Shown in pieces: positions 24,958 to 50,119 of a DNA stretch of 64,000 nucleotides (positions are counted from its first letter, which is position 1; the number at the start of each line of letters is the position of its first letter). The position numbers and the translations under genes are program-made. The stretch comes from an uncultured Chloroflexia bacterium. Its GTDB lineage: Bacteria > Chloroflexota > Chloroflexia > QHBQ01 > JADMIH01. Location of the stretch: positions 68,539-132,538 of the forward strand of contig CAWEQU010000008.1 of NCBI GenBank assembly GCA_963811305.1. The letters are read 5' to 3'. Below the pieces are notes generated by a model that did not search any database, was not told the origin of the DNA, and saw only the letters and a program-made list of their open reading frames with translations.

Positions 24958-24972
24958 TCAATCAGTGCCTCC

Positions 24973-25009: not shown

Positions 25010-25325
25010 AGAAACGATATCAGGACTTACGCAAGTATACGCATCCATCGAGGAGTGGGCAGCGAACTATCGTCCGGCGTCCATCGTCTATCGTCTGCGC
25101 AAGCCCTTAAATATTAGAATTAGCGGTGTGCTTGAAACTCGATACCCTCCCGCTCATGCCTGAGACTCTTATCAACATCCGCCGTTGAGCATGATATATG
25201 GATATATGTTGGAAAAACCCTTGTGCCAATTCGGACGCACGTGGCACAGCCACCTATAGAATTGTACAAAGTCGAGCTTAGTCAAGCATTAATCGCCACG
25301 TATGTTGGCCTAATTGTATTTCTGA

Positions 25326-26678
25326 TCAAGCGTGCTCCCCTCCTCTGATCTTAGTTATTTGATCCAATAGGCAACGTACGGCAGGTGGGCTGAGCTTTTT
25401 GGGACCATCATACGAGATATGAAAGCAAACGATATTACTTGCCACCCCGCCCAAAGGAAACCAGCCAAAAAAGAATTCCCTCTCGTCAATGACAATGGCT
25501 TTGATCGTAGGCGTGAACTTGTACTTATAAAGAGACACTTTGACGTTCCCGATAGCATGATCAGCGAACTGATCACAAGCTGAATCATAGCGTCTCTTAT
25601 AACTTAACTTCGGCTTCTTTTGCGTGATGCGCGGATCATTTTCTTCCCCTTCAAACACATAACCAGCATCCCTAAGGCGTTGAGCACCAAAGTTCGTACT
25701 AGGATCGAGCATGTATATATCTAATGTGAGGGTGCTCGCTTACATTTACACAGGCATCTCTCACAGGATCGAGTATATCTACCGGATTTGTAACCCAGCT
25801 ATCAATCACTGATATTGAGCGCGTCGCTTTTCTTAGGGCGTCTTGGATTGATGGATCATGCCAATTCTTGTAAACCACAGGATAAGGTCTATTAGGCTTC
25901 TGATCAGGCCTTGACGAATTATACGATAGGTTTTCAAACGTGTTATTGAACCAGTACTGCAATTCAGTTAGCAACTGCCTCTGATACGTACTCTTCTCAC
26001 TTAAAATGTAGAATTGTGAATGATCTGGCACATTGTACGGCTTTTCCCCTTCTAGATGTTGGAATAGGCATAGCAAGCCAGTATGCCCGTTTACTATCAC
26101 AAGAATAAACGGCGGTAAGAAGTCATAATAATGAATCTGATGCTTTTTGATGAATTCATTTCGGGAGATGAGTATTTCCAAGCTCGCCTTGGTCCTATGT
26201 TTTATCCATATTTGGGAGGTGGGATTACGTGGAAATTCGTAGATTAGATTTCTCGTTGGGGTCACGAACCAATAGACGTAAGTCATATATTTGTGTCTTC
26301 AGGTTTCGAATTGCTGTCCCCACAAGTGCTGAGGTAGAGCCAAAAACGTCTAGGGTTAGTATGACTTTCTCACCTTCAAATAATCTACCCAAGGCTTCCT
26401 GCAAGTGATCAAAAGACTGCTTCTGATTATTTGTATCGTGTTGTTGACTAGCTGAGATTGAAGCCACTAGATTACCTATAGCTACGGCAGTTAGTACAGT
26501 AAGTATCGCTTGGTTATATTCTGTCGGATTCGATGTTCACGATACTTCGCACGCCCAAGAGAGCCGCTACGAACAGAGTTACTATTGTGAGCAGGTGCTC
26601 TATTTTGGTAGCACGCCTTAGGAATTCCTTGAGTCCCAACCAAAGTGATTTCCAAAGCGGAGTACCTTTCGAGTTCAT
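25326..26678 (-). pseudogene. decayed hypothetical gene (2 TM helices + two weakly similar domains) in cassette cargo
   Basis: Pieces lie in three frames: a 51-aa ORF from ATG 26678 (LLTIVTLFVAALLGV), then 26225-26467, 25699-26286 and 25326-25712. The last two fuse in frame if a 64-nt segment bounded by the 9-bp direct repeat AGGATCGAG is removed. Confidence 0.5.
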
Positions 26679-27203
26679 TCAAGCCTCCAATCTCAGCCCA
26701 TAGTGATGACCTTGCAATAGATCGAGCTGCTCAGGTTGAGCAGTTGATGCCATGTTGATTATTCCCATCACATCCGCCGGGTTCCTAGACACTGCCCACC
26801 TCCACACGCCGAAGCCGCCATGCCCATTGACGGCGCGCACCCATTCGTCAAGGGACGTGCGCTTAGTTTGGTTCTGTTGGTTATCCTGGCCTTTGACTTC
26901 AAGCACCAGATGGGAGCCGTCGGTAAGGCAGATGATGAAGTCGGGGATGTATTTCTTGATTAGTCCTTTCCAAACATAGATTATCTCGAAGCCTAGATGC
27001 TCATTCTTTACCCAGGCTTCAACATTGGGATTGCGGTCTAGCTCGAAGGCTTCGCTGGCCTCCCAGGTGCTATCGAAGATACAGAAGTTGATATGCGATC
27101 TCTTCGTGTATTCACACGCATCGCCGCTATACCAAGTGGGCATATCGCCTATGAAGCGAATGGGGTGCTCTATGACGAAGATGTAGAGGCGAAGTCTGGG
27201 CAT
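26679..27203 (-). pseudogene. C-terminal PD-(D/E)xK nuclease fragment of a type III Res-like helicase-nuclease
   Basis: HINFCIFDSTWEASEAFELDRNPNVEAWVKNEHLGFEIIYVWKGLIKKYIPDFIICL..LVLEVKG..WVRAVNGHGGFGVWRW matches the conserved tail of restriction-type helicases (from memory). There is no helicase part upstream. Confidence 0.6.
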
Positions 27204-27281
27204 AGACGTATATCCTTAAATGATAGGGAGTAATATGGCAATAGTATATCACAAAATCAGCAAATGTATTATGGTTAGGGC

Positions 27282-28298
27282 TTACGCAAGAAGCATAGTG
27301 ATGGCAGGGTTTCTGAGTTGAGCAACAAGATAGTCATGCAGCAAGCCATGCTTGAGTTGATAGACATTTCGCTTGGTCTGGTAAGTCAAGGTCTTGAGCC
27401 TGCTCCACACCAGCAGAGCACACACTATGTGGTTGCGTTGGATGCGAGCTTTGCGACACTGGCAATCCTCAAGACCCGTCAGTTGCTTGGCTTCTCAGTG
27501 AAACTCTTCAATCTTCCAGCGCAAGGCACTCGCCTCTTGAGCACCCTGCGTAGAGGATTGAGACAGATCGTTGGTCACGACCCATTCCGTGCGGTGGGTG
27601 GACACCTCAACTCGGAACAGTTTCACTTTGAAATCGCCTGGGAACCCTCTGACCTTGACCAGCTTGCCCCTCGCCAACTCCGCTTGGCTCCAACTCAACG
27701 CTTCGATGCGTCGGTACGGCTTCTCTCCACTGCTCTCGTCAACAAGACGGTTGCTCTTCAGGGGGCAGTAGAAAATCTTGCCCATTCCGGCGATTTGCAG
27801 CATAACTTCTTTGACGGCGTACCAAGCGTCCATGAGCACCGTGTGGAAAGGGAGCTTACGATTACGATGCCCTGCCATCGAAAGCATCTCTCGCACATGG
27901 TCCAACTTGCTTTTGCCATCGGTGTTAGGATCGAAGATACGGTAGTCAATCACCCAGAACTGCTCCGTATGAGGGTTGACGTACACGCAAGACACCAACC
28001 CTATCCCTCAGATTACACTCTTTTGGTTGCCGCTCCACTGCCGACGCACCATCTCAATGTGAGGTCCGAAGCTATGCTCCAGCACTGTATCATCAAAGAC
28101 CAGGCAGGCTTGCGGGTCAAGTGCCAACAGCGGCTGCACCTGTTCCTACAACAGGCGAGGCGAAAGCTTCTCTCCAAGCAGGTAACGATTGATGGTGTCA
28201 TGGCTGAAGCTTTGCAAATGCTCGGCCATGTGCGTCAGCATGTAGTTGATCTGACTGCTCAGCAGAAACTGGCAGTAGTCGAGTTTGCTAAGGCTCAT
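27282..28298 (-). pseudogene. IS701/IS4-like DDE transposase with three in-frame stop codons
   Basis: A single frame reads MSLSKLDYCQFLL...CLVFDDTVLEH...VLMDAWY...RWKIEEFH*EAKQLTGLEDCQCRKARIQRNH. Stops are TAG (LL*EQ), TGA (VI*GIG) and TGA (FH*EA). No frameshift is present. Confidence 0.8.
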
Positions 28299-28360: not shown

Positions 28361-29771
28361 TCAGCCAAGCTGGGATACCCGAACAACTTCCGGCGTGCGT
28401 GTGTAGCAATCTTCACCCCTGGACGCTCGCTGGATGGTGGACCAGATGTCGCGGATCCACTCGGGTACGATGACCGGGCGGCCTAGCTCAGACTGGAAAC
28501 GCTCGACAGTCCACTCGTCCAGGGTGCGCACGCCTGTGAAGTCGAACATGCGACGTGGGAGGAAGATGAGGTCGGCAGGCTCCTCTCCCTGAGCAGAGTA
28601 AGGTTGCAGGGCTGCGGTGACCTCCGCGCCGAAAAGTAAGCCGGAGCAGCCGACGTTTCCGCCAAGCGTGGCGTTCTCTACCACTACGAGGCGCACATCC
28701 AGCCCTTCTATATCCCTGAATGGACGAAGGGCGCGCTCCAGGGTGAGCCTGGGCATCTCGCCGCATACCACTACGACCCGTTGGGGGCGCTCGATGCTCG
28801 GTGGGAGGGTGCGGGCGGTGCGCTTCGATTCATCCAGGAGCTGGCGCACGAGGCCGACGCCGTTCTCTAGCTGGGCGTAACCCTCGTATTCCCTGGCGTG
28901 GGGCACGTCCCGGCCCGCCATGATGTACCACTCGTCGGATAAGAAGGCGAAGTTTGTGCCGATCTCATCATGCAAGCGGCGCTGCCACCCCTCGACTTGC
29001 TCAAGCACGGCAGTGCCCTCTTCAGGGCGTATATGCACGAAGGTCGAGCTTGATCTGGTAGTGGTTGTTGCGGCGGAAGCGGGTGAGGCCAATTGGCACG
29101 ACGCCCACCGTCTGCACGTGCGGGTATAGCGCGGCGAGGTCAGATATGGAACGGTCTAGCTGCGCGCCATCGTTCAGGCCGGGGCAGAGGACTAGCTGAG
29201 TGTGGGTCTGGATGCCCATCTCGCCCAGGCGGCGTAGCTGCGGTATCACTTCGGGTGCGCGGGGATTGCCGAGGAGCGCACGGCGCATCTCAGGCTCGGT
29301 GGCGTGGACCGATACGTAGAGGGGCGAGAGACGCTCTTCGTCTATTCGCTGCCAGTCGGCCTCTTTGAGGTTGGTGAGGGTGATGAACCCGCCGTAGAGG
29401 AAGGAATAGCGGTAGTCGTCATCCTTGATGTCGAGGGTGCGGCGCAGGCCGGGCGCGTTCTGGTCGACGAAGCAGAAGGGGCAATGGTTGTTGCACCGCT
29501 TGATGCCGTCGAAGGTGGGGTCTACGAACTCAAGGCCTAGGTCCTGCTGCTCAGGCTTCCTTACCGCGAGCACCAGTGGCGCGCTCAGCCCTTCGCGGGC
29601 TACCTCGATGGTAAGGCGGTTGCTCACCTGGTGGAACTGGTAGCCAACCACATCCTTCACGGGCGTGCCGTTGATAGAGAGGAGCCTGTCGCCCTCCTGC
29701 ACACCAGCGCGAGCCGCCGGGCTGTCCGGCAACACTTTATCTATTCTACCCTGACTCTTATACTGCGCCAT
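28361..29771 (-). pseudogene. PDZ + radical-SAM-like DUF512 protein, one apparent frameshift
   Basis: PDZ (AARAGVQEGDRLLSINGTPV) and Cys cluster CNNHCPFCF in 29022-29771. The DUF512-like tail (FLSDEWYIMAGRDVP..YAQLENGVGLVR) is in 28361-29092. Shift near 29040-29090. Confidence 0.75.
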
Positions 29772-33028: not shown

Positions 33029-36000
33029 ATGAGTTCAGACCCAGAGACTAAGAGCAGACTACGGCCTATGGTGATCCTGCTCGCCCTATTCTTGGGCGCA
33101 GTACTTACCGGGAGCGTCGCACTGGCAGGACTTCCTACCGCAGCGCCGGCGCAGGATAGCCAGTCCGGCAGTACACTGGTACTCAGCGGCCATGTCTCGC
33201 CGGTGGGCCAGGATACGGGGCAAAAAGCAACGCTTTCGCCCGTTACCGACCTTGTCGTGCATGACATAGACATGGGCGCGCTGGGCATTCGCCCATACGA
33301 GGAAAAGCCGCCTGAATATGACACTGGCGCGATTGGCATTGGCAATGCCTACATGGTAGCCAGCCCTGACGTAGTCAGCCAGTCTACCGCCAGCGCATTA
33401 GGCACACTCCTATCCGGCTTCACCCCTGCCGAAAATGTTGATTATTATCTCAACGGCACCCTGGCAGGCACATTCGCAGCCAACGCCAACGGCGTAGTGG
33501 CCGTCGGTATCACTACGGGGGCCGGCCTCGGCTATATCACATTCGAAGGAAGAGGCCAGACCAGCCTCAAGCGTGCGGGCACCGTGGCCCAGGTGCTGGA
33601 TAACGCACCCTACGTGCCTGGCTTCGCTCACGCGCCTCACGCCATCAACACGACGGCAGGCGCAAGCTTCTATGCTTACGGCTTCCGCTGGATCCCCAAC
33701 TCTCCCACCGCGGTGACCCTGTATCGCAACGGGGTGTCGCTGGGATCGGCAGCCACGAGCGCCGCTGGCCGCTTCTTTACGCTGATCACCCCCGCCAATA
33801 ACGGCGACACCTCAGCTATCTACACGGCCATCTCGACCACCGTCCCCTCCATGTCCGGCTCGAGCGTCGAAGAGCGAGCTGACGCAGGCACGCCGCCGAG
33901 TGGTGACATGAACCTGGCTCGCGTCTTTGTAGACAGACCCGTCTACTCCTCCACTCTCGGTGCCTCGATCGGCTTCGTCGGTGAAGGGTTCCAGCCAGGG
34001 GAGACAGTGACCATCTCCGGTTGCGCGTCGGGCAGTGCGCCCGCCGACTCGAACGGTGCGCTTGGCGCCACTGTCACTTTCCCTCCCGGCGCGGGCGTCG
34101 CGCAGTGTATCTTTACCGGGGGCACCAGTGGGCGTGTAGGCCGGGGCAGCGTCGAGGGGAACGTGAACGCTAAGAACGCGCCCTCCGCTATCAATGTCCC
34201 GTCGAACATCAGCACGACCGCTACAAGCTTCGCCATACTATTCAACAGACTGCTGCCCAATCAGAGCGGCACTATCTACATAGATGGTGTGGCCGGACCT
34301 GCGGCCAGCACTAACGCCAGCGGGTATGGGTCGGCATTGCTCACATCACCCGGCACATTGGGCCTGCACGAGGTGGCCTTTATCGGCTCATCAGGGCAGG
34401 TTGCCATAGCCCCACTGTGGATAGTAGCACCGTCAGGCGCTACCTCCACACCCACCAGCGTTCCGGCCACGGCTACCAATACGACAGTAGCAGCGAGCGC
34501 GACAGCGACGGTATGCGTGCCTGGCGCACCTATCCAGGAGACAGAGCCTAACAACACCATCGCTCTCGCCAACCCTATCGGCACGAACGGGGCTGAGGTG
34601 CGAGGGGGGATTACCCCTGCTGGTGATTTAGACTACTTCTCCTTCTCAGCTAATGCTGGAGATAGAATTTGGACGTACATCAACACCTCCAATGCCGCTC
34701 CTTCTACAGACTCTATCCTTACACTCTTCAACGCAGTTAGCACTACCATCCAGCTAGACGATGACAACGGCTTCCAGTCCACATTGTCGTCAGCTATAGC
34801 AGGTGGGGTCATCACCCAGACGGGGACCCATGCCATCCAGGTGAGGCAGTTCGGTGGGGCTACCATCATGTCCCCTTACTCTCTGTACGTTGACAAGACC
34901 ACTAGCAGCACCGTACCAGAGATAGAGCCTAACGACGTTATCACCCAGGCCAATGCATACAGCTTCGGCACGGTGGTGACAGGCTCCATACCTATCTCGA
35001 CCGACCTCGACTACTACACCTTCCCACTAGCCCAGAACGAGAGGGTAGTAATCCAGGTAGACGGAGACCCAGACCGTAACGGTACCAACCTGAGTCGTGT
35101 CAACCAGTTCAACCCCAACTTTGACCTCCTCGCTGCCGATGGCTCGCTGATCACCGCGGTAGACAGCGACAGCCAGGGAGGGAACGGAGGGCTGTTGTCA
35201 GAGGCGCTGGTGTTCACCAACACCTCAGCCATCTCAACGACGTTCGCCATTCGTATCAAGTTCGACCCCTCGACCCCGGTTGAGGACGACCTGGGTATCT
35301 ACAACCTCCACATGTTCAAGTTGGGCGGTGGGGCCTGCGGTCCGACCGGCACACCTACCAACACTGTAGTTGTACCTACCGCTACCGCAACCAACACTGC
35401 TGGCGCAGCGACGGCCACACCGACCATCTGCACCACCAACTACACGTATACCGCTTCAGCGGGTGCGACAATCGTACCTGGTACGGTGGATATAGGTAAT
35501 CATGGCGACGACGTCATCACCTCGGTGACATTGCCATTCCCATACACCGTGTACGACTTGAGCTTCACCACGGTGAACGTCAGCTCCAACGGCAACTTGC
35601 AGTTCAACAGCGCCATCACGGGGCTGAATGACTACATCAATGCCTGTCTGCCTGTCACCGACAGGGCGTACAGCTACACCATCTACGCCTTCTGGGATGA
35701 CCAGATAACTGCTCCCGCTGGCAAGGGTGTCTTTAGCTCTGTGAGTGGAGTAGCGCCTAACCGCATATTCAACCTGGAGTTCCGCACCTGCGGCTTCAGC
35801 ACCGCTACCACCTGTGCGGCAGGCACTGACACCAACTACGAGGTCAGGCTGTACGAGGGTCAGACCAGGTTCGACCTCATCTACGCAGTGATGGGCCTGA
35901 CAGGTTCCAGTGCCACTACAGGTATCCAGAAGAACACCACCACCTACAGCCAGAACACCTGCAACACCGCCATACCTGCTGGGACCATGGTGATGGGCGT

Positions 36001-39000
36001 GCTAGGTGCGTGCGCTACCCCCACCCCTGGTGGAGCGACAGCAACCGCTACCCCCACAGGCCAGGTAGTTACAGCCACGCCTACATCGTGTGCTGGAGGA
36101 CCGCTCGTCTTCAACGGAGCGATAGCGGCGGGTGATCCTACGCAGACCAATCGCCTCTTTAGAGATGACCCACAGAGCACCTGTGCCGTGCCTCAGACCT
36201 GTGCCCAGTCTACCGGTACCTTCCGCTACGATACCTACACACTGACCAACTCTTCCGCTTCTGCTGTGTGTGTATCGATCACGCTAGACCCACAGAGCTG
36301 CACAGGCACATCGTACATTCAGAGTGTAGCCTATCTAGGCACCTTCAACCCAGCCAGCATCTGCGCTAACTACCTCGGTGACATCGGAGTAAGCCCAGAG
36401 GTTGGTGCACCACGCACCTACGAAGTGACAGTGCCCGCTGGGGCTACCTTCGTGATCGTGGTCAACGAGTTGTTCACAGCAGGCTGCCCTGCCTACACAC
36501 TCACCGTGAGTGGGCTACCGAGTGGAGGAGGGTGTCCTACACCCACCGCTGGCACTCCTGTAGCTACCGCTACTACAGCGCAAGCCACACCGACATGCCC
36601 GGCAGGTGGACCCACCGTGTTCACAGGCTCCATCGACGGGAGCGAGCCTACCCACAACAGCGTGCTCGGTGCAGTCTCATCGTGTGGCTCGACCACACCT
36701 TGCCCTGGCGAGCTTGCTGGCACGTTCCACTATGACACATACCAGCTCGTGAACAACACAGGCTCTGCGGTCTGTGTGACGGTAGACCTCAGTGATGCAG
36801 CCTGCGTCTACTCAGAGGTATACTCGGCAGTCCCAGACCCCGGTAATGCCTGCACCGCTTACGTGGCAGACTCAAACCTGGGTGCCAGCTATCAGTCTGA
36901 CAATCCCGGCGAACACCACATACTACTTAGTGGTGGAAGAGTTCACCGAGAACGCAGGGTGTCCATCGTACACAGTCACGGTAACAGGCTTGCCTGGTGG
37001 TGGTGGAGGGTGTGCCACACCCGCACCGAGCAGCACTCCCGTATCGACAGCACCACCGACAGCCACAGTCTGCCCGCCCACAGCCCCAACCAAGCCACAC
37101 GTAGTGGGTCTTGGCGGAGAGAAGGGCACTCCCAACGTCGTCAAGCAAGGGACAGGCTCCGGCAAGCTGAGAGCTGGCTCCTCTACTCGTAGCGGAGGCC
37201 CAAGCACTGGCGACAACACATCACCAATCAACCCGAGGACAAGCTGGAGAGCGACAGCACCGATCAGCTTCATACTCGATGATGGAGCACAGGAAGATAG
37301 CGTGGGCTGGACCAACCAGACGGTCAACTACCCTGCCATCTGGCTCAACCGCTTCTCCCCTGTCGATGGCGACTTCCCCATCCAGGTCAACCAGATCAGC
37401 GTCCAGTTCCCAGGACCCACCTCCGCTGGACGGTCACTGGTAGGGTTAGCAATCAACCTGTTGGTGTACGTAGATGCAGACCGCAACAACGACCCCTCCA
37501 ACGCGGTGAAGATAGCCCAACTCCCTGCTACCGTCACAGCATCTGATGGAGTGACATTCTCCAACTACGCAGTATCGGTACTAGCCAGCACACCAGGGGA
37601 CCTGTACATCGGCTTCTCAGACACGTACAACAGTGGCGGAGTAAGCCCCATAAGCTTCCCATCCCCGCTGGACACGACAGCGTCACAGGTCCGCAGTTGG
37701 GTAGCTGGACAGAGCGCGAACATCGACCCAGACTACGACAACCTTGGGAACAACGACACGCTAGGCACAATCGACAGCTTCGGTCTCCCGGGTAACTGGG
37801 TAATCCGAGCGAGTGGTGACACTCAAGCAGGTGGCGGTGGCTGTCCTACACCTACTGCTGGTGCTAGTGCAACACCTACCTCCTGCGTCGTGAGTGCATG
37901 GACCGACCGCGCACTGATACCTGAGGCACGCGGACGAGCAGCCGGCGCGACCATGGGTAGCAACATCTACGTCTTCGGCGGCAGACCCGCAAGCACCACG
38001 TACACGAACACGATCTACCGTTACGACATCAACGGCAATACGTGGACGCTGATGACGGAGACGCTACCAGACGACCGGACATCGAACATGGCAGCAGGGG
38101 TACTGACCTTCCCAGAGGGAGATCGCATCTTCATCGCGGGTGGATCAGGACCTTCTAGTGCCGTGATAAGCCGGACGCTGGCGTACAACCCGTCAGACGG
38201 CACGCTTACCCCGAAGGCAGACTGGCCCGCAGCCCCCACGCGCATACCTGGTGGGTGGGCGGTAGCCAACAACAAGTTCTACATCTTCGGTGGCTACAAC
38301 CCTGCCGTACCTGAGGTGCTCGCGGACATCTGGGAGTACAACCCGACGACCAATGCGTGGACTGAGATAACCGCAGACCTGAGCCTGGCACGTGGGTACA
38401 TAGCGACCGAAACGCTGCCAGATGGCATGATCTACCTGGCGGGTGGGTTCGACGAACTCGCTGGCGGACACCTTCGCCTTCGACATCTTCAACCCCGGCA
38501 CAGGTGCCATAACGGCAGGACCAGACCTACCGCAGGCGAAGAGCAACAACCACGGTTACAACATCGGCGGTAAGTTCGTGATGCCGAGCGGCGGCATAGA
38601 CGACGTGAACCACGACACGAACACGTGGGTGTACGACCCTGTAGCGGGCACATGGAGCGCCGGAGTACCGACGCTGCATGCGACACGTAACTATGCCAAG
38701 GGATACGGCACAAACGGGACGATCTACGTGATCGGAGGAGCAGACTCGCTAGGTTCTACCTTCTACGACTTCACGCAGCAGTTTAGCACCTCAGGTGGTC
38801 CATGCCCGACCGCTACTGTAGAGCCACCAACCTCTACAGCTACATCCGAGGCGACGGCCACAACGCCACCTGCTACGGTAGTGCCATCCTCTACGGCTAC
38901 GGTAGGCCCAACAGCCTGCCCGATCCAGTACGTGGACGTACCGCCAGGCAGCGAGTTCTATCCCTTCATCAGGTGTATAGCCTGCCGCAAGATAGCCAAC

Positions 39001-39613
39001 GGCTACGCTTGTGGTGGACCGGGAGAACCGTGCGATCCTAACAACACAGGCTACTTCCGACCGTTCATGCCTATCACACGTGGGCAGATAGCCAAGATGG
39101 TCTCGAACGCTGCTGGCTTCGGAGAGGATCCAGGTCCTCAGATCTTTGAGGACGTGCCTCCTAGCCATCCGTTCTACCAGTTCATCAACAGGCTTACAAT
39201 GCGTGGGCACATGGGTGGATATCCATGCGGGACCAACGCAGCGGAGCCATGCATACCTCCTGGCAACCGTCCATACTTCAGATCCTGGTGCAAACGCGAC
39301 TAGGGGACAAGTCTCCAAGATAGTTGCCAATGCAGCAGGCATCACTACACCTGTACCGGCTGGTACTCAGACGTACGAGGACGTACCATCATCCAACCCA
39401 TTCTGGGTATACATCGAGCGGCTAACCGCGCTCGGAGTGATGAGTGGGTATCCGTGTGGAGGAGTTGGAGAGCCGTGCGTACCTCCGGGCAACAGGCCAT
39501 ACTTCAGGCCGTTCGCGCAGATCACGAGAGCACAAACCTCCAAGATAGTAGCCAACACCTTCTATCCTAACTGCCAGACCCCTGTCAGAGCACCAAACGG
39601 TGGGACTGACTAG
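33029..39613 (+). pseudogene. giant (~2,190 aa) modular cell-surface protein, three apparent frameshifts
   Basis: Four ORF pieces: 33029-37192, 36792-38573, 38443-39303 and 39146-39613. Order of parts: signal peptide, beta-sandwich-like repeats, two pre-peptidase-C-terminal-like domains (EPNNTIALANPIG..GDLDYFSF; EPNDVITQANAY..TDLDYYTF), two tandem Cys-rich ~150-aa modules, a Kelch-like region (IYVFGG, FYIFGG, IYVIGG), and C-terminal SLH repeats. Shifts lie near 36890, 38450 and 39280. Confidence 0.8.
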
Positions 39614-39640: not shown

Positions 39641-39676
39641 AAAGGGAGAGCGGGCCACGTGGCCCGCTCTCCCTTT
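39641..39676. terminator. 18-bp arm palindromic bidirectional terminator
   Basis: AAAGGGAGAGCGGGCCAC/GTGGCCCGCTCTCCCTTT between convergent genes. Confidence 0.7.
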
Positions 39677-39706: not shown

Positions 39707-41399
39707 CTATTCCCTGGCAAGCTCCACCGGGAGCGTAATAGAAAAGCGCGTCTCGCCTGGCCTGGACGCGACGCTTATCTGGCCGTGGTGCTTGTCAACT
39801 ATTATGTTGTAGGCGATATGTAGCCCCAGGCCCGTGCCAACGCCAACAGCTTTCGTGGTGAAGAAAGGCTGGAAGATGCGCCCCTGCACCTCTTCGGGCA
39901 TACCCGGCCCGTTATCCGTTATCTCTATGACCACCGCATCGCGCCCCTTCAGATGGGTATGTAACGTGATCTCACCTCGCCCCTCCATGGCGTCTATGGC
40001 GTTGTCTATGATATTGGTCCACACCTGGTTTAGCTCGCTTGCGTACGCCTCGATGCGCGGCAGATCAGGCGCGTAATCTCGCGTCACGGTGACGCCCGCC
40101 TTGAGCTTGTGCTTGAGTATGATCAGGGTATTCTCCAGGCCCTCATGCACGTCAATCTGCTGCACGGCCGCCTGGTCCAGGTACGAATAAGTCTTCACCG
40201 CCTTCACTATCTGCGAAATGTGCGCCGCGCTGGTGCTGACCTCATTCAATAAGGCATAAGCTGAACAGCCGGTCGCTAACCAGGGGACGATTACAGGGAG
40301 TCGCTCATCCGAGAAGGGTGCCGTCAAGCTCTCCAACCCCTCTACATCCCAACCGAACGACACCAACACGGGAGCTACTTCCCACGCATCCTCTACACCC
40401 CGGTCCTCAAGCCAGTCTTGCAGGTCGCTCTCCCGGTCACTCCGGTCGAGGGGGTCCAGCACCAGGGGCTTGCTCGACCGCGCCTCCATCTCGCCCCGCA
40501 GCACGTTAAGCTCGTCCGCCTGCTCCTGGGTGAATGTAAGGGTGTCCAGTTGCACGGCGAGGCGCTGCCACTGGGCGAATACATCGCGTAACTGGTCAGA
40601 GCTGCGACGTATGGCTGCCGCCGGGTTGTTCAGCTCGTGAGCCAGCCCCGCGGATAGCCTGCCTAGCCCCGCCAGCTTCTCCTGCTGGGCCAATAATGCC
40701 TGGGTGCTTTCGAGGCGAGCAGCCATCGTGCGTAGCACCGACAATGCGGCAGCGGGGCTACAGGCCAACAGTTGCTCGAAGGCGTTCTGGCTGATGACGA
40801 GGACGCGGCTGTCGCTGAGGGCGCGCACCGACGCCGAGCGCGGGGCCTTTATGATGAGCGACTGCTCCCCCACAACGTCTCCAGGACCGCGCCTCGATAG
40901 CACGACTTCGCCCTGCGCCGACTGCTTCGTAACCTCGAACTCTCCCTCAAGCACCACGTAAACGGCGTCGCCCATGTCGCCCTTCTCGCATGAGGAGTTG
41001 CCCTTCCGCGATCTGGGCGGGGCGGGCCATGCCGTAGATACGGGTAAGGTCCTCCTCCGAGAGGTCCGCGAAGAGGGGCAGGCGGCGGAGGAACTCCGGG
41101 GTCGCCGCGGTATCGTAGCCCCCAGGCGCGCTTCGCTCCGGGAACATGACGATGCGGTCCTCATAGCACCAGACCCAGTCCTCGTCCGGCTCAAAAGAGC
41201 ACATGACCGGGTGGGTGGTCTCGTGGAAATGGGCGGTGGCGTGGCGGTTCTTCGACTTATCGCAGCACCCGATGTGCCCGCATACGAGGCACATCCGAAG
41301 GTGTACCCACTCATCGCCGGATTGGAGGCACTCCTCGCACCCCTCAGCGCCAGGCGTTACTTCCCGTATCTGCCCAAGATGAGTGCATTCGTCAGGCAT
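39707..41399 (-). pseudogene. ZnF-UBP + cNMP-binding + HisKA/HATPase histidine kinase, one apparent frameshift
   Basis: The 150-aa ORF 40947-41399 reads CEECLQSGDEWVHLRMCLVCGHIGCCDKSKNRHATAHFHETTHP (UBP-type zinc finger) then FLRRLPLFADLSEEDL. It continues after a shift near 40980-40990 as GDMGDAVYVVLEGEFEV...RSASVRAL, the H-box LSAGLAHELNNP, and the ATPase motifs DNAIDAM, DNGPGM, GTGLGL. Confidence 0.82.
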
Positions 41400-41496
41400 T
41401 GGTGGCCTCAGTTGTTGGTCGGCGGATGACGGACGATAGACGACGGACGACGGAGTACCAAATCCTATTTATCGACCATCTGTAGCCAGCTACTAA

Positions 41497-43161
41497 TTAC
41501 AAGGTAGAGAGATACTGGTGGATGAATTGAACAGCCATCGAACCTTCACCTACGGCGGTTGCCATGCGCTTTACCGATTTATGGCGGACGTCGCCTGCTA
41601 CGAAGATGCCGGGGACGCTCGTCTCTAGCCAGAAGGGGGTGCGTTTTAGGGGCCATCCCTTCGGCGGCTTCCCATCCCTTATGAGGTCAGGCCCAGACAT
41701 GATGAAACCCATCTCGTCGCGCTCCAGCAGGTCTGCCACCCACTCGGTGCGGGGTTTAGCCCCTATGAAGACGAAGACCGCGCTTGTTGGCACTCGCTCT
41801 ACCTCGCCTGTATCGGCGTGTGCAATGCAAATCGACTCCAGCTTCCCCTCGCCCGACACTTCGCTCACGCTGCTGTTGAGCACCACTTCTATGTTCGGCG
41901 TTGCCTCTATCTGGTCGATCAGGTACTGCGACATGCTCTTCGACAGCGAGTCCCCTCGTACCAGCATAGTCACTTTATTGGCGGCGTATTTGGCGAAGTG
42001 CATGGCCGCCTGCCCCGCGGAGTTCGCCCCGCCGACGAGGTACACGTCCTCTCCCTTGTAATTGATCGCTTCGGACTGGGAAGCGCCGTAGTATATACCC
42101 GCGCCCGTCAATGCCTCGGCACCCGGCACGGCTAGCTTGCGGTAGCTGACGCCCGTCGAGATGAGGAGGGCATGGCAGCTCAATTCGGTGCCGTCTCCCA
42201 GCTTGATGTAGCGATAGGGGCCTTCCACGCGCACACTCTCCACCTGCTGCGGCGTGAGGATTTCGGCTCCGAGGCGGGTAGCCTGGGCCACCGCACGGCG
42301 CGCGAGGTCGCCACCACTCAACCCGGAAGGGAAGCCCAGGTAGTTCTCGATGCGCGAGCTTGTGCCTGCCTGCCCACCGGGAGCCACGCGCTCCACCAGG
42401 AGGGTCTTCAGCCCTTCGGATGCGCCATAAACCGCCGCCGCCAGGCCCGCGGGTCCCGCTCCTATGATAATCAGGTCGTAAAATGGGAGGGTAGCATGTA
42501 TCCGCCGCCCCACCTTCTCCGCTACCTGGGAGTTGGTCGGCTGCACCAGGTACGACCCATCCGTGAAGAGCACCACAGGGAGCTTCAGTGGGTCGAGCCC
42601 CGCGGTCTCCAGCAAGCGACGTGGCTCTTCCCCCATCTCTACGTCGAGCCAGTGATAGGGCACTTGGTTCCTGGCGAGGAAGTCTTTCACCCCATGGGTC
42701 TGCGGCGACCACCTGTGGCCTATCACGCGCATCCCCTCGAAGGGCGGCTGGTACGACGCCGCCCAGTCATTGAGGAGGTCGTCGAGGACAGGATAGAGGT
42801 TATCTTCGGGTGGGTCCCAGGGCTTCATCAGGTAATGGTCGAGGCGCACTTCGTTGATGGCGCGTATGGCGGCCTCGGTGTCGGCGTAGGCAGTGAGGAG
42901 GGCACGCTTGGCGTCGGGGAAGATAGTTATCGCCTCCGTCAGAAACTCCACGCCCGACATCTGGGGCATCCTCTGGTCAACCAGGAAGAGGGCCACAGGA
43001 TCATCACGCACCTTCAATTGCCGGAGCGCGTCCAGGGCGGCGCTGCCCGAATCGGAGCGCACGACCCTGTAGTCCTTTCCGTACTTCCGCCGCAAGTCGC
43101 GCTCAACAGCGCCAAGTACGGCAGACTCGTCGTCTACGGCAACGATAACTGGCTTTGCCAT
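41497..43161 (-). CDS. fused response regulator / Cys-less Grx-like / thioredoxin-reductase-like flavoprotein
   Basis: REC (VIVAVDDESAVL..FLVDQRMPQMSG..LMKPW). FAD motif DLIIIGAGPAGLAAAVYGASEG and NAD motif VYLVGGANSAGQAA. There is no CxxC anywhere (GASQSE sits where TrxR has CATC). Confidence 0.88.
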   Translation of the reverse strand: MAKPVIVAVDDESAVLGAVERDLRRKYGKDYRVVRSDSGSAALDALRQLKVRDDPVALFLVDQRMPQMSGVEFLTEAITIFPDAKRALLTAYADTEAAIRAINEVRLDHYLMKPWDPPEDNLYPVLDDLLNDWAASYQPPFEGMRVIGHRWSPQTHGVKDFLARNQVPYHWLDVEMGEEPRRLLETAGLDPLKLPVVLFTDGSYLVQPTNSQVAEKVGRRIHATLPFYDLIIIGAGPAGLAAAVYGASEGLKTLLVERVAPGGQAGTSSRIENYLGFPSGLSGGDLARRAVAQATRLGAEILTPQQVESVRVEGPYRYIKLGDGTELSCHALLISTGVSYRKLAVPGAEALTGAGIYYGASQSEAINYKGEDVYLVGGANSAGQAAMHFAKYAANKVTMLVRGDSLSKSMSQYLIDQIEATPNIEVVLNSSVSEVSGEGKLESICIAHADTGEVERVPTSAVFVFIGAKPRTEWVADLLERDEMGFIMSGPDLIRDGKPPKGWPLKRTPFWLETSVPGIFVAGDVRHKSVKRMATAVGEGSMAVQFIHQYLSTL

Positions 43162-43213
43162 AAGATTGTCCCTTTCTGGTGATGAGGAGTTGATAGACGT
43201 TAATGATTATACT

Positions 43214-46200
43214 CTACTGGCTGCCAGCGCCTACTGCCGGTTGCAGGCTACCTATCTTTGCCCTGGCGCTCTCCAGGTACAGCTCCCGATAGCTCTCGGT
43301 CTTGAAGAGAGAGGCAATTTCTTCGGCTGCGGCATGAGCTTCATCGAGCTTCATTTGTGCCTCGCCGTGGCGACCCATTGCTGAAAGCACTAGTGCTGCG
43401 CCGGTACGCGCTTCAAGGACGGCAGGGCGAATACCGATCTCGGTAGCTATAGACTCGGCGCGCCTGTAGTGCTCAAGCGCTCCAGGCAGGTCACCACAAG
43501 CGGTTTTCACATCTCCGCCCGCAAGCTCGACCATCGGGTAGTATTGTTTCATCTTGCGCTCTTGCACGTATTCGTGCGCCTCCCCCACCAGCCTGGTTGC
43601 TTCCTCTATCTGGCCGCGCGCTAGCGCGACCAGGACCACGCCTATCATCGAGCGCGGGCGGTGCAGGTACATCAACATGGAGGGCATGTTGAGACCGTTC
43701 TGGAAGTACTCGCCTGCCTTATCAACGTCTCCGAGGGCCAGGGCCGAAAAGCCCAGGTCCGGCCAGGCTGTCCCACCACCTACCGACCCCTCCGGCGTAG
43801 AGAGGATGGCAAGGGCTTCAGCGCTATGCTCGGCCACCTTGCCCGCCAGCTTCGCGCTCACCTCTATGTGCGCCCACGTCAGCCCGGCAAGCTCCATCGC
43901 TACTGCAAATGCCAGCATTGCCTGTATAGGCCGCGCCGTTGCCACTCCGCGCTCGAACCACTCTATCGCCTGCTCGTAATCCCCCAGCATCTGGTATATC
44001 GTGCCGAGTATGTAAGCGCCTGTAGGGGGAGGGATCGGAGCTCCAATTCTCATACCAAGCCAATAGCCTTCCTCTCCAATCCTCCTCGCCTCATCAAAAT
44101 TACCAATTCGCATGAGGTAGAGAGGCATAGCCTCAACCATAATATCAGCCTTATGGTGCAGGTCGCCCACTTCTTCCGCGAAGCGCAGCCCCTCCTGCGC
44201 CGTCTCCCAGCTCTTCTCGTACTCTGTCATCAACATGAGGGTATTCGATTTGTGGGCCAGTCCGAAGGCGACTACGGGGGTCGCACCGAGATTACGCCCC
44301 ATGCGTACCGCCTCGCTCAAGTACATCTCAGCCTGGCTGAAGTCGGCGACCATAGTACATATGCCGCAACGCATCGTAAACATCTCGGCCAGCCCGGCAT
44401 TATCCTCATGCTCGTGCGCCATGCGCTCCGAGGTATCCAGTTGCTCCTTGGCGAGGTCTAGCTGCCCCAGCATGAAGGCGTTGACGTAAGATGACTTGTT
44501 GAGAGCAGATATCTGCATCTGCACGTCGCCTTGCTCCTCCGCGTATCGCCGCATCTCCTCATAAGTTTGCAGCGCACCCGGCACGTCCATAGCAAACTCG
44601 AGCGCCTTGCCCAAACCTTCGTATGCGCGCCGTGCCATCTCCAGGTTGGCTGCGCTTCGCGCTATGTCGAGCGCCTTGCGATAATAGCCGATGGCCTCAT
44701 CCCTCGAACCGGCTCGCGCAGCACGGTCCCCGGCTTCCACCAGGAAGGGAAGAGCACGCGTTTCCTCTCGTGCTTCAATGAAGTGGCGCGCCAGGTCGTT
44801 CACGCGCTCTGGCTCGCGCCTTTCAAGGCATTCTCCCACCCGCAGGTGTAGCTCGCGCCTCTTGCTGAGGAGCACCGAAGCGTAAGCGGTCTCCTGGGTG
44901 AGGACGTGCTTGAAGAGGTAGACGCGGCTAGGTATATGGCTCTTCTCGCGCACAAGCTCGCGCCTCTGCAAGCTGGACATGGAACTGCCGAGCACCTGGG
45001 GCATCTCATATACGTCACCCAGGACGTCGTACCCGAACTCGCGCCCAATCACGGAGGCGGTCTGAGCGACGTGCTTGGCTTCATCATCGAGGCGGTCGAG
45101 GCGGGCCGTGATGACCCCGGCCAGGGTGTCGGGCACGGCGATATTCTCGATCTCGCGGGTGGCCCGCCAGTGATCCCCTTCGCGTATCACCAGCTTCGCG
45201 TCGAGGAGCGAGCGGATTACTTCTTCCACGAAGAAGGGGTTGCCTTCTGCCTTCCTCAGTATCAGGGCGCGCACCTTCTCAGGCAGGTCTTCTATCTCAA
45301 GGAGGTTAGCGACAAGCTCGCGTGATTTGGTTTCGTCCAGAGGCTCAAGGGCGACCTGCGTGTAGCGGTGGGAGTAGTCCCGCGAGGCTATCTCATGGAA
45401 GCGCCACGACGGCTCCTGGGCCTGCGGGCGGAAAAGGGCCACAGTATCAGCATCCCCTTGTCGGTGAGAGGGAGCAGTTGCTCGATAAGCTCAAGGGAGG
45501 TGGGGTCGACCCAGTGCAGGTCCTCGAACATCAACACCAGCGGCTCGCGGCTCGACATCGCCTCTATGAGCGCGCCAACAGCGTGGAACGTGCGCCCGCG
45601 CAGGGAAGGTGGCTCAAGGTACTTGACGCTCTCATCAGCGTCACCGGTCAACTTGATGCCGGATGAGCGTCGCGATAAAAGGTGCTATTTCGTGCTCGCG
45701 CCCAGGCATCGCTGCGGCGATGCCTGCCAATATCTTCTCGTACTTCTGAGCGTCCGTATCGTCGCCCCGCAAACCGAACATCCCTTCAAACAGATCAATG
45801 AAGGGAGCATATGGGGTGCTAGAACTCATACGAGAGGGAACGACCTTCATGCCACCGGACGGGTGTAGAACTCCGCCAACTTTCGCAGCTCAGCAACCAA
45901 GCGCGATTTCCCAGCCCTGCCTCGCCTGTAAGCGACACTATCTGCCCATGTCCGCGCTATCAGCTCCTCAATGCGGGAGCGCAACGTTGCTAGTTCGCGC
46001 TCGCGCCCGACCAGGGGAGAGGTGAGGCCCTCGATGCCGCGAGTGGGGACCGCGCCCTCGCGAACGGCCAACACTCTGTAGGCGTCAACAGGCTCGGCCT
46101 TTCCCTTGACCTCGATGCCGCCAAGCTATTCGAACTCGAAGAGGTTCGACACCGACTTGTAGGTGTTAGCCGGAAATCTGCACCGTGCCGGGCTGGGCGG

Positions 46201-46931
46201 TTTGCTCCATACGCGAGGCGAGGTTTACCGCGTCGCCCATGGCGGTGTATTCCACCCGCAGGTCGGAGCCAACCTCGCCTACGACTACCAGGCCGGTATT
46301 GATGCCTACCCGCACGTCGAAATCGAAGCCGCGCTCGCGCTTTATCTTCTCGCGGTAGGGGCGTATGCCCTCCAGGATGCCGAGCCCGGCCAGCACCGCG
46401 CGCTGCGGGTCGTCTTCGTGGGCGATGGGCGCGCCGAAGAAGGCCAGGATGGCGTCGCCCATGAGGCGGGCCAGCGTGCCCTCGTAGCGGTAGACGGGCT
46501 CGATGAGGTGCTCGAAGGCGCCGTTCATGATCTCGGTCCATTCCTCCGGGTCGAGCTGCTCGGCAATGGCGGTAGAGCCTTTCACGTCGCAGAAAAGAAC
46601 CGTTACGATGCGGCGCTCTCCCGCCATGCTGCGGTTGGCGCGCTGCCGCCTGGAGCTTACCGAGCAACTCCTTGGGGATGTACTGTTGGAGGCGCGCATC
46701 TGCGAGTGGTGGAGGGGGGTCGGGGGTCGGGGGTTGGGGGCTGGTAGCGATAGGTTGCGGCGGAGGGGTCGCCGCGACTCCTGCTACCGGGTGGCCGCAG
46801 TCGGAGCAGAACCTGGCACCGGGCGCAAGTGAAGCGCCGCAGTTCGCGCACGCTATGGGCATTGCGCTACCGCAGTTGAAGCAGAACTTCGCACCCTGGG
46901 GGTTATCTGTCTGGCAATTGGCACATTTCAT
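43214..46931 (-). pseudogene. double-zinc-ribbon + class III adenylate/guanylate cyclase + AAA ATPase + TPR protein, multiply interrupted
   Basis: N-terminus MKCANCQTDNPQGAKFCFNCG..CANCGASL..FCSDCG. Cyclase domain (RRIVTVLFCDVKGSTAIAE..GDAILAFFGAP..VRVGINTG..YTAMGDAVNLASRME). Walker A GEAGLGKSRL is restored only by two compensating shifts at ~45905-45960. In-frame TAG at 46126-46128. Long TPR tail in 43214-45442. At least 5 frame breaks. Confidence 0.8.
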
Positions 46932-48724: not shown

Positions 48725-50119
48725 CTACACTATCTTGCCGGGATTGAGCAGACCTTCCGGGTCGAAGAGCGACTTGATGCGACGCATCCAATCTACAGCG
48801 ATGCCATGCTCTTCAGCCATATACGGACGCTTGATAAGGCCGATGCCGTGCTCACCAGAAGCCGTACCTCCGACCGAGAGCGCCCACCTTACAAGTTGCT
48901 CCGAGAAGGCATGAGCACGTTCATACTCTTCGGGTCTCGTCGCTATAATAGTATGGAAGTTTCCATCGCCTACATGCCCCACAATGCTGCCCTCAAGGCC
49001 CGTTTCGCGTAAGCACTGCTTGGCGTACGCTATGCTTGCAGATAGGTGGCCAAGGGGCACGGCTGTATCGGTGATTGTGTAGGTATGGCCAGGATGGGCA
49101 TTGACCAGCGCCCAATAGACCTGGTGTCGTGCCGCCCACTGCGCTGTTCGCTCCTCCTGGGTGCGCGCTACGTCGATGTTGGTAGCACCCGCATCACGCA
49201 CCACTTCTTCCACCAACGCAACCTCACTCTCAATAGAGGCCGCAGTGGACGAGTGGAACTCGATGAAGAGTGCTGGAGCTTCCTGGTAATCATGCCCCAG
49301 GTAGCGATTGATGCTGCTTATGCTCAACTCATCGAGTAGTTCCAGGCGAGCAACCGGCAGTGCGCTGCCTATGATTGCGAAGGCCGCTTCTGCCGCCGCT
49401 TCGATAGAAGGGAAGAATACCCGTAATGCATAAATATGCTCGGCAACCGGGTGCAGACGTACAGATAATTCAGTTATCACTCCCAGAGTTCCCGACGAGC
49501 CAATGAACAGGTCTTTCAGGTCGTAACCACTGCTCGTCTTGTGGACAGGGCGTCCGAGTTGCAGCACATCACCGTTAGCCAGCACCACCTGGAGAGCGAG
49601 CGTATTCTGCCTCATGCCTCCATAGCGGACTGTGGTAGTGCCACTGGCATTGGTGGCCGCCATACCGCCAAGCGAAGCATCTGCGCCTGGGTCAACCGGG
49701 AAGAAAAGGCCAGTAGGGCGCAAAGCCTTGTTTAGAGCGGTGCGCGTGACGCCAGGTTGCACAACCGCAACGTAATTCTCAGGTTGAATACTGATGATGT
49801 TGTTCATCTTGGAGAGATCAAGACTGAGCATTGCAACAGAGGGATCGGCGGGCACCAATGCCCCCTCCAGGCTGGTGCCTGCCCCGAATGGGATCAGAGG
49901 TACACGGTACTGACGGCACCATGCCAATACCGTCTGCACGTCTCTAACCTCTTCAGCATAGGCCACCGCGAGGGGTAAACGCACCTCCGGGAAGTTTTCA
50001 TCCCGACCATGCGAGCTGAGAACGTAGGGGTTAGTGCTTACTTTATCTGCACCAAGTAGGGCATACAACTGCTCAAGGGCAGTGTCGATATACTCCGACA
50101 TTGTTGTTACCGACCTCAA
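48725..50119 (-). CDS. FAD-linked oxidase (GlcD / D-lactate dehydrogenase-like)
   Basis: FAD-binding PCMH-type domain (VPLIPFGAGTSLEGALVP..) and C-terminal GGTASGEHGIGLIKRPYM. An alternative start at ATG 50101 is possible. Confidence 0.85.
   Translation of the reverse strand: MRSVTTMSEYIDTALEQLYALLGADKVSTNPYVLSSHGRDENFPEVRLPLAVAYAEEVRDVQTVLAWCRQYRVPLIPFGAGTSLEGALVPADPSVAMLSLDLSKMNNIISIQPENYVAVVQPGVTRTALNKALRPTGLFFPVDPGADASLGGMAATNASGTTTVRYGGMRQNTLALQVVLANGDVLQLGRPVHKTSSGYDLKDLFIGSSGTLGVITELSVRLHPVAEHIYALRVFFPSIEAAAEAAFAIIGSALPVARLELLDELSISSINRYLGHDYQEAPALFIEFHSSTAASIESEVALVEEVVRDAGATNIDVARTQEERTAQWAARHQVYWALVNAHPGHTYTITDTAVPLGHLSASIAYAKQCLRETGLEGSIVGHVGDGNFHTIIATRPEEYERAHAFSEQLVRWALSVGGTASGEHGIGLIKRPYMAEEHGIAVDWMRRIKSLFDPEGLLNPGKIV

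Follow-up and report, generated by a model that had tools for sequence, protein, structure and literature searches.

Response regulators in which an N-terminal receiver (REC) domain with all phospho-acceptor residues is fused to an enzyme are represented by CheB, PleD/WspR and RpfG. To our knowledge, a flavin oxidoreductase has not been characterised as the output of any response regulator. On the side of the second messengers, a class III-type nucleotidyl cyclase beside a protein whose cyclic-nucleotide-binding (CNB) domain reads its product is found in the Pycsar systems and in the Xanthomonas pair XC_0250/XC_0249, which leads from cGMP to a CNB-GGDEF protein; we know of no characterised histidine kinase that is gated by a cyclic nucleotide. 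The locus described here lies in a stretch of 64,000 nucleotides (hereafter the window) of contig CAWEQU010000008.1 from an uncultured Chloroflexia bacterium, where three consecutive genes on the minus strand (39707-46931) were found by open reading frame (ORF) analysis to encode a class III cyclase, a REC-flavoprotein built like thioredoxin reductase (TrxR) and a soluble histidine kinase with a CNB domain. It differs from CheB, PleD/WspR and RpfG in its flavin oxidoreductase module, and from XC_0250/XC_0249 and Pycsar in that the CNB domain belongs to a histidine kinase that would feed a receiver-flavoprotein, and not to a diguanylate cyclase, a TIR protein or a membrane toxin. The fusion of REC and TrxR already carries an NCBI product name, and the combination was catalogued as 'Mycobacterium-like' in the Galperin census (PMC5847659). 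That census (PMC5847659) describes neither a kinase partner nor a link to a cyclase, nor does it mention that the CxxC motif is missing.

The cyclase gene occupies positions 43214-46931 (ORFs, Pfam and the intact orthologues of the related loci L001, L082, L084, L085 and L086), the REC-flavoprotein gene 41497-43161 (an intact ORF of 554 amino acids, Pfam) and the kinase gene 39707-41399 (ORFs, Pfam; about 563 amino acids once a +1 insertion at ~40984 is removed). The gap between the cyclase stop (43214) and the flavoprotein start (43161) is 52 nucleotides, and the one between the flavoprotein stop (41497) and the kinase start (41399) is 97 nucleotides. These coordinates, spacings and domain calls agree with those of the original prediction, which was made from the letters of the window alone. 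No terminator-like site was seen in either intergenic gap, and an intrinsic terminator on the minus strand (39641-39676; 16-bp stem with 11 G-C pairs and a T-rich tail) starts 30 nucleotides past the stop codon of the kinase; L001 shares this terminator, and its palindrome also appeared as a self-match. Rfam and tRNA scans of the window gave no RNA features. The arrangement of the triad is far from what chance would give, since it recurs in many genomes. On balance, it seems probable that the three genes form one operon for a pathway from a second messenger to a two-component system with an enzyme as its output.

Homologues of the REC-flavoprotein are abundant, with more than 8000 protein clusters among the matches listed and at least 599 confirmed copies in a scan of one genome per species. 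From this species-representative scan, 80 loci were kept for the neighbourhood analysis, 57 of which were well flanked, with 2.5 kb or more of sequence to either side. Represented among the 80 are Chloroflexota, Cyanobacteria, Gemmatimonadota, Verrucomicrobiota, Acidobacteriota, Nitrospirota, Myxococcota, Actinomycetota, Planctomycetota and Proteobacteria. Of the 80 loci, 66 have a kinase belonging to the same subfamily (core identity 39-65%) no further than 3 kb from the REC-flavoprotein, as do 49 of the 57 well-flanked ones, mostly on the same strand and at a distance of 15-90 nucleotides or of one sensor domain; in L082 the stop and the start share a base. All-against-all clustering of the ORFs within 6 kb revealed no other gene family in more than 5 of the 80 loci and no DNA-binding regulator among them, and two small clusters of neighbours were antisense artefacts. 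Across the phyla sampled, the genes for kinase and flavoprotein are near-obligate neighbours, so the conservation of gene neighbourhood that had been proposed as a check of the pathway holds for this pair. Given this gene linkage and the invariant catalytic and phospho-acceptor residues described below, the kinase very probably phosphorylates the REC domain of the flavoprotein. Two further neighbours were observed at a few loci: an LtrA-family membrane protein often follows the kinase in cyanobacteria (five loci: L004, L030, L035, L068, L077), and a glyoxalase-fold protein lies within 6 kb of the REC-flavoprotein in four loci (L014, L015, L017, L077), directly upstream in at least three.

Concerning the flavoprotein, whose sequence is 100% identical to the public protein P0001, Pfam matched Response_reg (E = 3.3e-12) and Pyr_redox_2 (E = 4.8e-37) together with related families. 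The REC domain (42757-43161, minus strand; Pfam and homologue alignment) is closest to RpfG/HD-type receivers (PDB 2rjn; NosR-family model), and D10, D11, D62 (the phospho-acceptor), T90, Y110 and K113 are invariant in 41 homologues. It is followed by a glutaredoxin (Grx)-like domain (42496-42756, minus strand) identified by a weak PF00462 match, the topology of the AlphaFold2 (AF2) model and the homologue alignment. The PF00462 match is sub-threshold in the window protein (E = 0.056), and a 70%-identical homologue, P0053, reaches 25.8 bits against a cutoff of 22.9; in the AF2 model this domain has the Grx-type beta-alpha-beta-alpha-beta-beta-alpha topology. The sequence 'RWSPQTH' (RWSPxxH) replaces the CPYC motif, none of the 41 homologues has a cysteine in this domain, and W151 and H156 are invariant. 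As many as 413 clusters at 50% identity match the Grx-like domain at E <= 1e-10.

The remaining part is a TrxR-like FAD/NAD(P)H domain pair (41500-42495, minus strand; PDB alignments, TIGR01292 and Foldseek). It shares with TrxB and AhpF the fold of two Rossmann domains binding FAD and NAD(P)H, and its 330 C-terminal residues show 28-33% identity to solved TrxRs, with Foldseek TM-scores (by target) of 0.72-0.80. The FAD (GxGxxG, GD) and NAD(P)H (GGxNSA) motifs are invariant in the homologues, and VRG occupies the position of the TrxR HRR motif, which is presumably the site for the 2'-phosphate of NADPH. The likeness to AhpF extends to a predicted Trx-fold domain ahead of the TrxR module, and AhpF (4o5q) is the top full-length Foldseek match. 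Unlike TrxB and AhpF, the flavoprotein lacks the CxxC of the NAD(P)H domain as well as any cysteine in the Trx-fold domain, and it possesses an N-terminal receiver and a conserved 19-residue insertion with 'PKGW' in the TrxR-like part. Both dithiols of AhpF are absent, and the AhpF model gives 168 bits against a cutoff of 503. In the alignment, 'YCAI-CDG' of TrxR corresponds to 'YYGASQSEA', where G-A-S-Q-S replaces the CxxC motif, and the adjacent acid residue is retained as the invariant Glu364. The sole conserved cysteine, C329, aligns with what we take to be a non-catalytic cysteine of E. coli TrxR.

Because every redox cysteine has been lost, the flavoprotein is not a disulfide reductase, and the known mechanism of disulfide reduction is closed to it, as judged from these residues. 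The identity of a thioredoxin-disulfide reductase was likewise ruled out, as the CxxC is missing and the score with TIGR01292 (the TrxB equivalog) is 238.1 bits, below the cutoff of 343.45. The protein is an AhpF-like scaffold that lacks all redox cysteines and has a receiver domain in front of it; the simplest expectation would be a flavin reaction that depends on NAD(P)H and uses an acceptor other than a disulfide. A GlcD-like FAD-linked oxidase gene is located on the same strand 1.8 kb upstream of the cyclase (48725-50119). The same family stands directly upstream of the REC-flavoprotein in one Actinomycetota and one Acidobacteriaceae locus and near it in two Anaerolineae loci (L024, 8392-9861; L057, 8597-9943; L064; L081). 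This proximity may be due to chance or may hint at a redox partner.

The kinase matched zf-UBP PF02148 (E = 5e-13), cNMP_binding (E = 1.9e-20) and HATPase_c (E = 2.4e-26) in Pfam, and no membrane segments are apparent in its sequence or model. Its core (39710-40723, minus strand) presents the H-box 'AGLAHELNNP', in which His254 is invariant in 38 members of the clade and at least 90% conserved in 63 kinases adjacent to the REC-TrxR protein, and the N, G1, F and G2 boxes, whose residues N462, N466, D498, G500, G502, G524, G526 and G528 are invariant in the clade. The DHp hairpin of this kinase family carries a four-helix insertion of roughly 80-105 residues; in the alignment to CckA, which has about 6 residues there, it spans about 105. 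In the AF2 model m618350e46289 the insertion appears as four confident helices at residues 291-359 (roughly 40190-40540 in the window), and the motif it carries, LDPLxRSDRExxLxxWLE, shows a conservation of at least 90% across the 63 kinases whatever the sensor domain. A Foldseek search with the kinase model returned only ordinary kinases, none of the solved ones covering the DHp insertion. A continuous helix is also modelled from the CNB domain into the DHp domain (residues 215-285), with a predicted local distance difference test (pLDDT) score mostly of 80-90 that falls to about 55 around residues 231-250. Regarding variants of the family, a tandem-duplicated kinase of about 960 amino acids (cNMP-HK-cNMP-HK, where cNMP is the CNB domain and HK the histidine kinase) occurs in many Verrucomicrobiota and other genomes (L036, 11656-14568; P0150 to P0228), and many cyanobacteria have two separate kinase paralogues beside the REC-flavoprotein.

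Two sensor domains precede the kinase core. The zf-UBP zinc finger (41115-41399, minus strand; Pfam and PDB search) has the Cys/His zinc ligands and the fold of PF02148, and about 82 of its residues are very similar to 2IDA (E = 1.9e-32), a bacterial stand-alone zf-UBP deposited as a hypothetical protein; in the window the finger is fused to the kinase instead. The 'CGRY' of HDAC6 (5g0f) aligns with 'CDKS', and its arginine, which we take to be R1155, the residue that holds the C-terminal Gly-Gly carboxylate of ubiquitin, is replaced by Lys in the window, by Glu in L001 and in the clade consensus and by Asp in 2IDA. Canonical binding of Gly-Gly by this finger is therefore unlikely. In the relatives, zf-UBP is either fused to the kinase or has a small gene of its own next to that of the kinase, flavoprotein or cyclase. 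A fusion of zf-UBP to the cyclase in L072 was considered and discarded, as the finger is there a separate ORF of 123 amino acids located 39 nucleotides upstream. The CNB domain (40724-41114, minus strand; Pfam and alignment) contains the canonical phosphate-binding cassette 'GEQSLIIKAPRSAS', and 'VGEQSLIIKAPRSASV' follows the pattern Gly-Glu ... Arg-[ST/x]-Ala; G177, E178, R187 and A189 are invariant in the 38 clade members.

The cyclase consists of a double zinc ribbon, a Pro-rich linker, a class III cyclase domain, a STAND-type NTPase (AAA_16) and TPR repeats. In the window it is assembled as several ORFs, on which Pfam matched the families DZR/Zn_Ribbon, TPR and Guanylate_cyc (E = 1.8e-22); the AAA_16 assignment comes from the precomputed annotation of the intact orthologues (1157-1250 amino acids). 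The N-terminal ribbons, two CxxC...CxxC units (46785-46931, minus strand; DZR, E = 2.8e-12; Zn_Ribbon_1, E = 1.1e-12), precede the catalytic domain (46066-46642, minus strand), which was delimited by Guanylate_cyc, tblastn and alignment to the orthologues and to Pseudomonas CyaB (3r5g) and Synechocystis Cya2 (2w01), its closest relatives in the alignment. The NTPase, with the Walker A motif 'GEAGLGKS' in the orthologues, and a MalT-like TPR sensor region (tblastn; TPR_12, TPR_MalT) follow at 43217-46065 (minus strand), and the final 742 codons, the TPR tail, are a single intact ORF. A class III domain, an AAA/NB-ARC NTPase and TPR repeats are also combined in mycobacterial Rv0386, Rv1358 and Rv2488c, which we take to be multidomain STAND-type class III cyclases. 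The window cyclase differs from them in its double zinc ribbon, in the lack of a C-terminal LuxR helix-turn-helix, in its substrate-specifying residues (Arg/Thr rather than Lys/Asp or Gln/Asn) and in being operonic with a CNB kinase.

Both metal-binding Asp residues and the transition-state Asn and Arg of the cyclase are present in 'FCDVKGST', 'MGDA' and 'NLASR' and are conserved in the orthologues. The canonical pairs of class III enzymes are Lys/Asp or Lys/Thr for ATP and Glu/Cys, Glu/Ser or Glu/Gly for GTP, and the cyclase has none of them: Arg ('ARLMGD') takes the position of Lys in CyaB and Glu in Cya2, and Thr is found at the second position, as in class IIIb enzymes. This Arg/Thr pair is conserved in all the kinase-linked orthologues, and two unlinked cyclase homology domains (CHDs) have Lys at the first position. 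With a conserved Arg in place of the Lys that specifies the purine, the residues do not tell which nucleotide is made; cAMP is the most likely product despite the unusual pair, and the conserved Arg could also point to a non-standard cyclic nucleotide. No paralogous CHD or CNB domain was detected by tblastn anywhere in the window. In L082, the relative whose flavoprotein is 96% identical, a second class III cyclase (DUF5939 + Guanylate_cyc; 628-2472) stands upstream of an XdhC pair, where the window has the FAD-linked oxidase.

Most of the kinases that flank the flavoprotein (53 of 63) match the Pfam family cNMP_binding; a few have PAS or REC instead and retain the kinase core with the DHp insertion. 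A column-by-column alignment showed that only one sub-clade retains the canonical cassette (GE...PRxA[ST]), the one formed by the window, its Chloroflexia relatives, several Anaerolineae, Sphaerobacter, a metagenome-assembled genome of Acidimicrobiia and a Devosia, and that the cassette Arg is lost in the cyanobacterial and most other kinases of the wider family. In the 66 loci with an adjacent kinase, a CHD-NTPase-TPR cyclase is adjacent in 4 of the 9 with a canonical cassette and in 1 of the 57 without it (Fisher p = 8e-4), and zf-UBP in 5 of the 9 and 8 of the 57, respectively (p = 0.011); these loci are phylogenetically related, so the Fisher p values overstate their independence. The kinase-linked cyclases constitute one orthologous group with the Arg/Thr signature, which is absent from the two unlinked CHDs.

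The intact full triad was found in L001, L082/083, L084, L085 and L086, the last one through its kinase (61% identical to that of L001). The identity of the REC-TrxR protein to that of the window is 97% in L001, 96% in L082/083, 86% in L084 and 76% in L085. In L082/083, L084, L085 and L086 the proteins have the expected sizes (cyclase 1157-1250, flavoprotein 553-554 and zf-UBP-cNMP kinase 562-570 amino acids). The flanking genes of L084, L085 and L086 are unrelated to those of the window, and L003, L062 (Devosia), L063 (Sphaerobacter) and L072 have the genes of the triad in a permuted order. In L088, 32 nucleotides separate a CHD-NB-ARC-TPR cyclase from the zf-UBP-cNMP kinase that comes after it, and no flavoprotein intervenes. 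The conservation of the three genes together, which the original prediction had named as a test, is thus borne out by five relatives in which the triad recurs and by its persistence among unrelated flanks or in permuted order. A functional link from the cyclase to the kinase predicts precisely the adjacency in the cassette clade, the permuted order and the varied flanks that were observed, and the product of the cyclase probably gates the kinase. A PNPOx protein was rejected as a member of the cassette: the gene, of the PPOX class (FMN/F420, PNPOx_N), separates the cyclase from the flavoprotein in L001 alone (9399-9920), and there is none in this position in the window, L082, L084, L085 or L086, the gap being 52 nucleotides in both the window and L082. 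A Pycsar defence system was also rejected. The cyclase and CNB domains gave matches to PycC and to Pycsar effector models at the domain level only, the effector is a kinase, the REC-flavoprotein has no PADLOC match and no sign of a defence island was seen.

The reading frames of the cyclase and the kinase are broken in the window. The breaks were mapped by three-frame translation and blastn to L001 and L082, which have 87-91% nucleotide identity to the window, agree mutually and are intact, the cyclase from the zinc ribbon to the stop and the kinase from the zinc finger to the stop. The kinase has a single +1 insertion at ~40984, inside the CNB domain, which breaks the gene up into two ORFs, of 150 and 535 amino acids; the gene is also split in the deposited public assembly (gene calls of 150 and 422 amino acids). 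In the cyclase, all the lesions fall between 45443 and 46644 (minus strand). They comprise eight uncompensated, window-specific indels of one nucleotide at ~46644 (+1), 46169 (+1), 45955 (+1), 45910 (-1), 45870 (+1), 45824 (+1), 45664 (+1) and 45443 (-1), and a TCG>TAG change. The TAG at 46126-46128, already reported in the original prediction, was confirmed by translation and by alignment to the two close relatives, which have TCG (Ser); the number of frame breaks given there for the cyclase was too low. Both the insertion at ~46169 and the TAG are within the catalytic domain.

Codon changes specific to the window lineage amount to 45 synonymous and 10 nonsynonymous in the broken part of the cyclase, 59 and 9 in its intact TPR part, 49 and 3 in the flavoprotein, and 40 and 4 in the kinase. 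The catalytic domain of the cyclase is still 96% identical in protein to that of L001. The frame breaks are most likely errors of an indel-prone assembly rather than the signs of gene death, because the long drift that would give eight indels should leave mostly nonsynonymous changes, and the ratio seen is 45:10. A giant Kelch/SLH-type surface protein gene (33029-39613, plus strand) is also read as four overlapping ORFs, with insertions of one nucleotide at 38456 and 39283 relative to L001. These lesions are of the same kind as those in the cyclase and the kinase and point to assembly error. On the minus strand, PDZ + Radical_SAM_2 (29022-29771) and DUF512 (28361-29092) overlap in different frames; as we take these domains to belong normally to one protein, 28361-29771 looks like another assembly frameshift. 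In L087, an ENA assembly with a contig name of the same style, the highly conserved REC-TrxR gene is itself split in two.

Taking these data together, the gene linkage and the residue conservation are what was observed, and from them we infer each of the chemical steps that follow. The cyclase would work as a STAND-type switch, in which a cue read by the TPR/NTPase module, and perhaps by the zinc ribbons, leads to an oligomerisation that pairs two class III catalytic domains and allows the synthesis of a cyclic nucleotide. This nucleotide would bind to the cassette of the kinase, whose motifs are present, and the last helix of the CNB domain, predicted in the AF2 model to run into the DHp helix 1 bearing the phospho-His, could transmit the signal. 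The kinase would then autophosphorylate, and Asp62 in the REC domain encoded next to it would receive the phosphoryl group; this phosphorylation may alter the activity of the AhpF-built FAD/NAD(P)H enzyme, which would pass electrons to a non-disulfide acceptor. The zf-UBP finger could be a second, accessory input module. We lean towards this chain from cyclase to kinase, REC and flavoenzyme as a whole. The original prediction of such a pathway is sustained in the linkage of kinase and REC and in that of cyclase and kinase; it is qualified by the broken frames of the window, the lost CxxC, the unusual specificity residues of the cyclase and the confinement of the cyclic nucleotide input to one clade. 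Its step from cyclase to CNB domain to kinase finds support in the canonical cassette, the clade-specific adjacency of the cyclase and the recurring triad, and does not extend to most of the wider family, which has lost the cassette Arg. Of its redox output, the FAD and NAD(P)H motifs remain, and the chemistry of thioredoxin-disulfide reductase has to be abandoned.

Several observations weigh against the complete chain. The adjacent cyclase is missing from about half of the loci with a canonical cassette and from nearly all those of the wider family, in which most kinases are also devoid of the Arg that binds the nucleotide. As this family is mostly without either of them, its conserved core works without an adjacent cyclase, and the gating by cyclic nucleotides is a clade-specific input and not the core of the system. 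Moreover, we know of no characterised precedent for the change of Lys to Arg at the purine-specifying position, and no conserved neighbour gene suggests an electron acceptor for the flavoprotein. As assembled, the cyclase is untranslatable and the kinase is split, and 8 of the 11 indels found over 10.8 kb fall in 1.2 kb of the cyclase, a clustering that is odd for random error and would fit a targeted inactivation. Finally, a literature search yielded no experimental study of the REC-TrxR fusion, of a histidine kinase gated by cyclic nucleotides or of a bacterial zf-UBP, just as the original prediction had known of no experimental description of the pathway.

The kinase and the flavoprotein could be the true pair and the cyclase merely a frequent neighbour, the CNB-type domain sensing something else, as many domains of the CAP family do. 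This would explain the many family kinases that have neither the cassette Arg nor an adjacent cyclase, and the 5 of the 9 canonical-cassette loci with no cyclase within 10 kb; CHD-STAND-TPR proteins are, in addition, abundant in Chloroflexota, and further STAND or cyclase genes lie nearby in L082 and L085. Nevertheless, the adjacency is concentrated in exactly the clade that retains the residues for binding the nucleotide, it involves a single orthologous group of cyclases with its own Arg/Thr signature, it outlasts the permutation of the gene order and the transfer to Devosia and Sphaerobacter, and it persists in L088, where no flavoprotein intervenes, which leaves a mere neighbourhood rather improbable. 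A different doubt concerns the window itself, where the cassette could be a real, recently inactivated pseudogene cluster, with the REC-flavoprotein orphaned or served by another kinase. All nine lesions of the cyclase are specific to the window with respect to two relatives, they are concentrated in its catalytic and NTPase part and one of them is a substitution instead of an indel; the window has no CHD or CNB paralogue that could substitute, and the deposited assembly has the same split kinase. However, neutral decay with eight indels would have brought far more nonsynonymous changes into the broken stretch than the few that were counted, the catalytic domain has hardly diverged from that of L001, the same type of one-nucleotide insertion is seen in the unrelated Kelch/SLH and DUF512 genes, and the split REC-TrxR gene of L087 shows that a similar ENA long-contig assembly also broke a highly conserved gene. 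Inactivation is therefore considered unlikely, and the frame breaks are attributed to the assembly.

The flavoprotein could, alternatively, be a sensor of redox state or NAD(P)H and not a catalytic output. The state of the flavin or the pyridine nucleotide would then tune the gain and loss of the REC phosphate or the binding of the kinase, and the pair would merge the redox state with the nucleotide signal and act through protein-protein contacts. The loss of all redox cysteines with retention of the fold and the cofactor motifs would suit this role, as would the extreme conservation of the protein (67-70% full-length identity between Chloroflexota and cyanobacteria), the lack of a conserved substrate or acceptor gene nearby and the family-specific four-helix insertion of the kinase, which could dock the flavoprotein. 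On the other hand, no downstream partner is visible for a sensor either, the invariant Glu364, the invariant FAD/NAD(P)H motifs and the conserved 'PKGW' insertion resemble an active site under selection, and N-terminal fusions of REC to enzymes are outputs in all the characterised cases that we know of (CheB, PleD, RpfG). A purely sensory function thus appears improbable. As a tentative proposal, which we regard as possible, the flavoprotein may be an enzyme that phosphorylation switches and whose flavin chemistry would be new to signalling; it might, for example, act as a regulated NAD(P)H oxidase or as an electron valve, setting the redox poise of the cell or generating a reactive signal. 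Its driver would be a dedicated family of kinases with a four-helix DHp insertion, and in the Chloroflexota clade this kinase would be gated by cyclic nucleotides.

Apart from this locus, the window includes a low-GC stretch at 24000-28000 (GC 0.48-0.52, against about 0.57 elsewhere), which has only small ORFs. Some of them were judged by eye to be transposase-like (27495-27998) and endonuclease-like (26679-27203), and the stretch is probably a foreign island. The ORF at 23569-24957 is HD-GYP-like by the motif HHEWYDGSGYP, also read by eye only.

Overall, the system is a two-component pathway with an uncharacterised redox-enzyme output, a kinase insertion and a clade-specific second-messenger input, and it is not categorically new. 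None of the three proteins has a specific model in NCBIfam, where all the matches are below cutoff, and the REC-flavoprotein, very common and very strongly conserved, is the subject of no experimental study found in the literature. If the pathway is true, the misleading database label 'thioredoxin-disulfide reductase' would be corrected, a direct redox-enzyme output would be added to two-component signalling, and cyclic nucleotides would acquire a concrete role in Chloroflexota.

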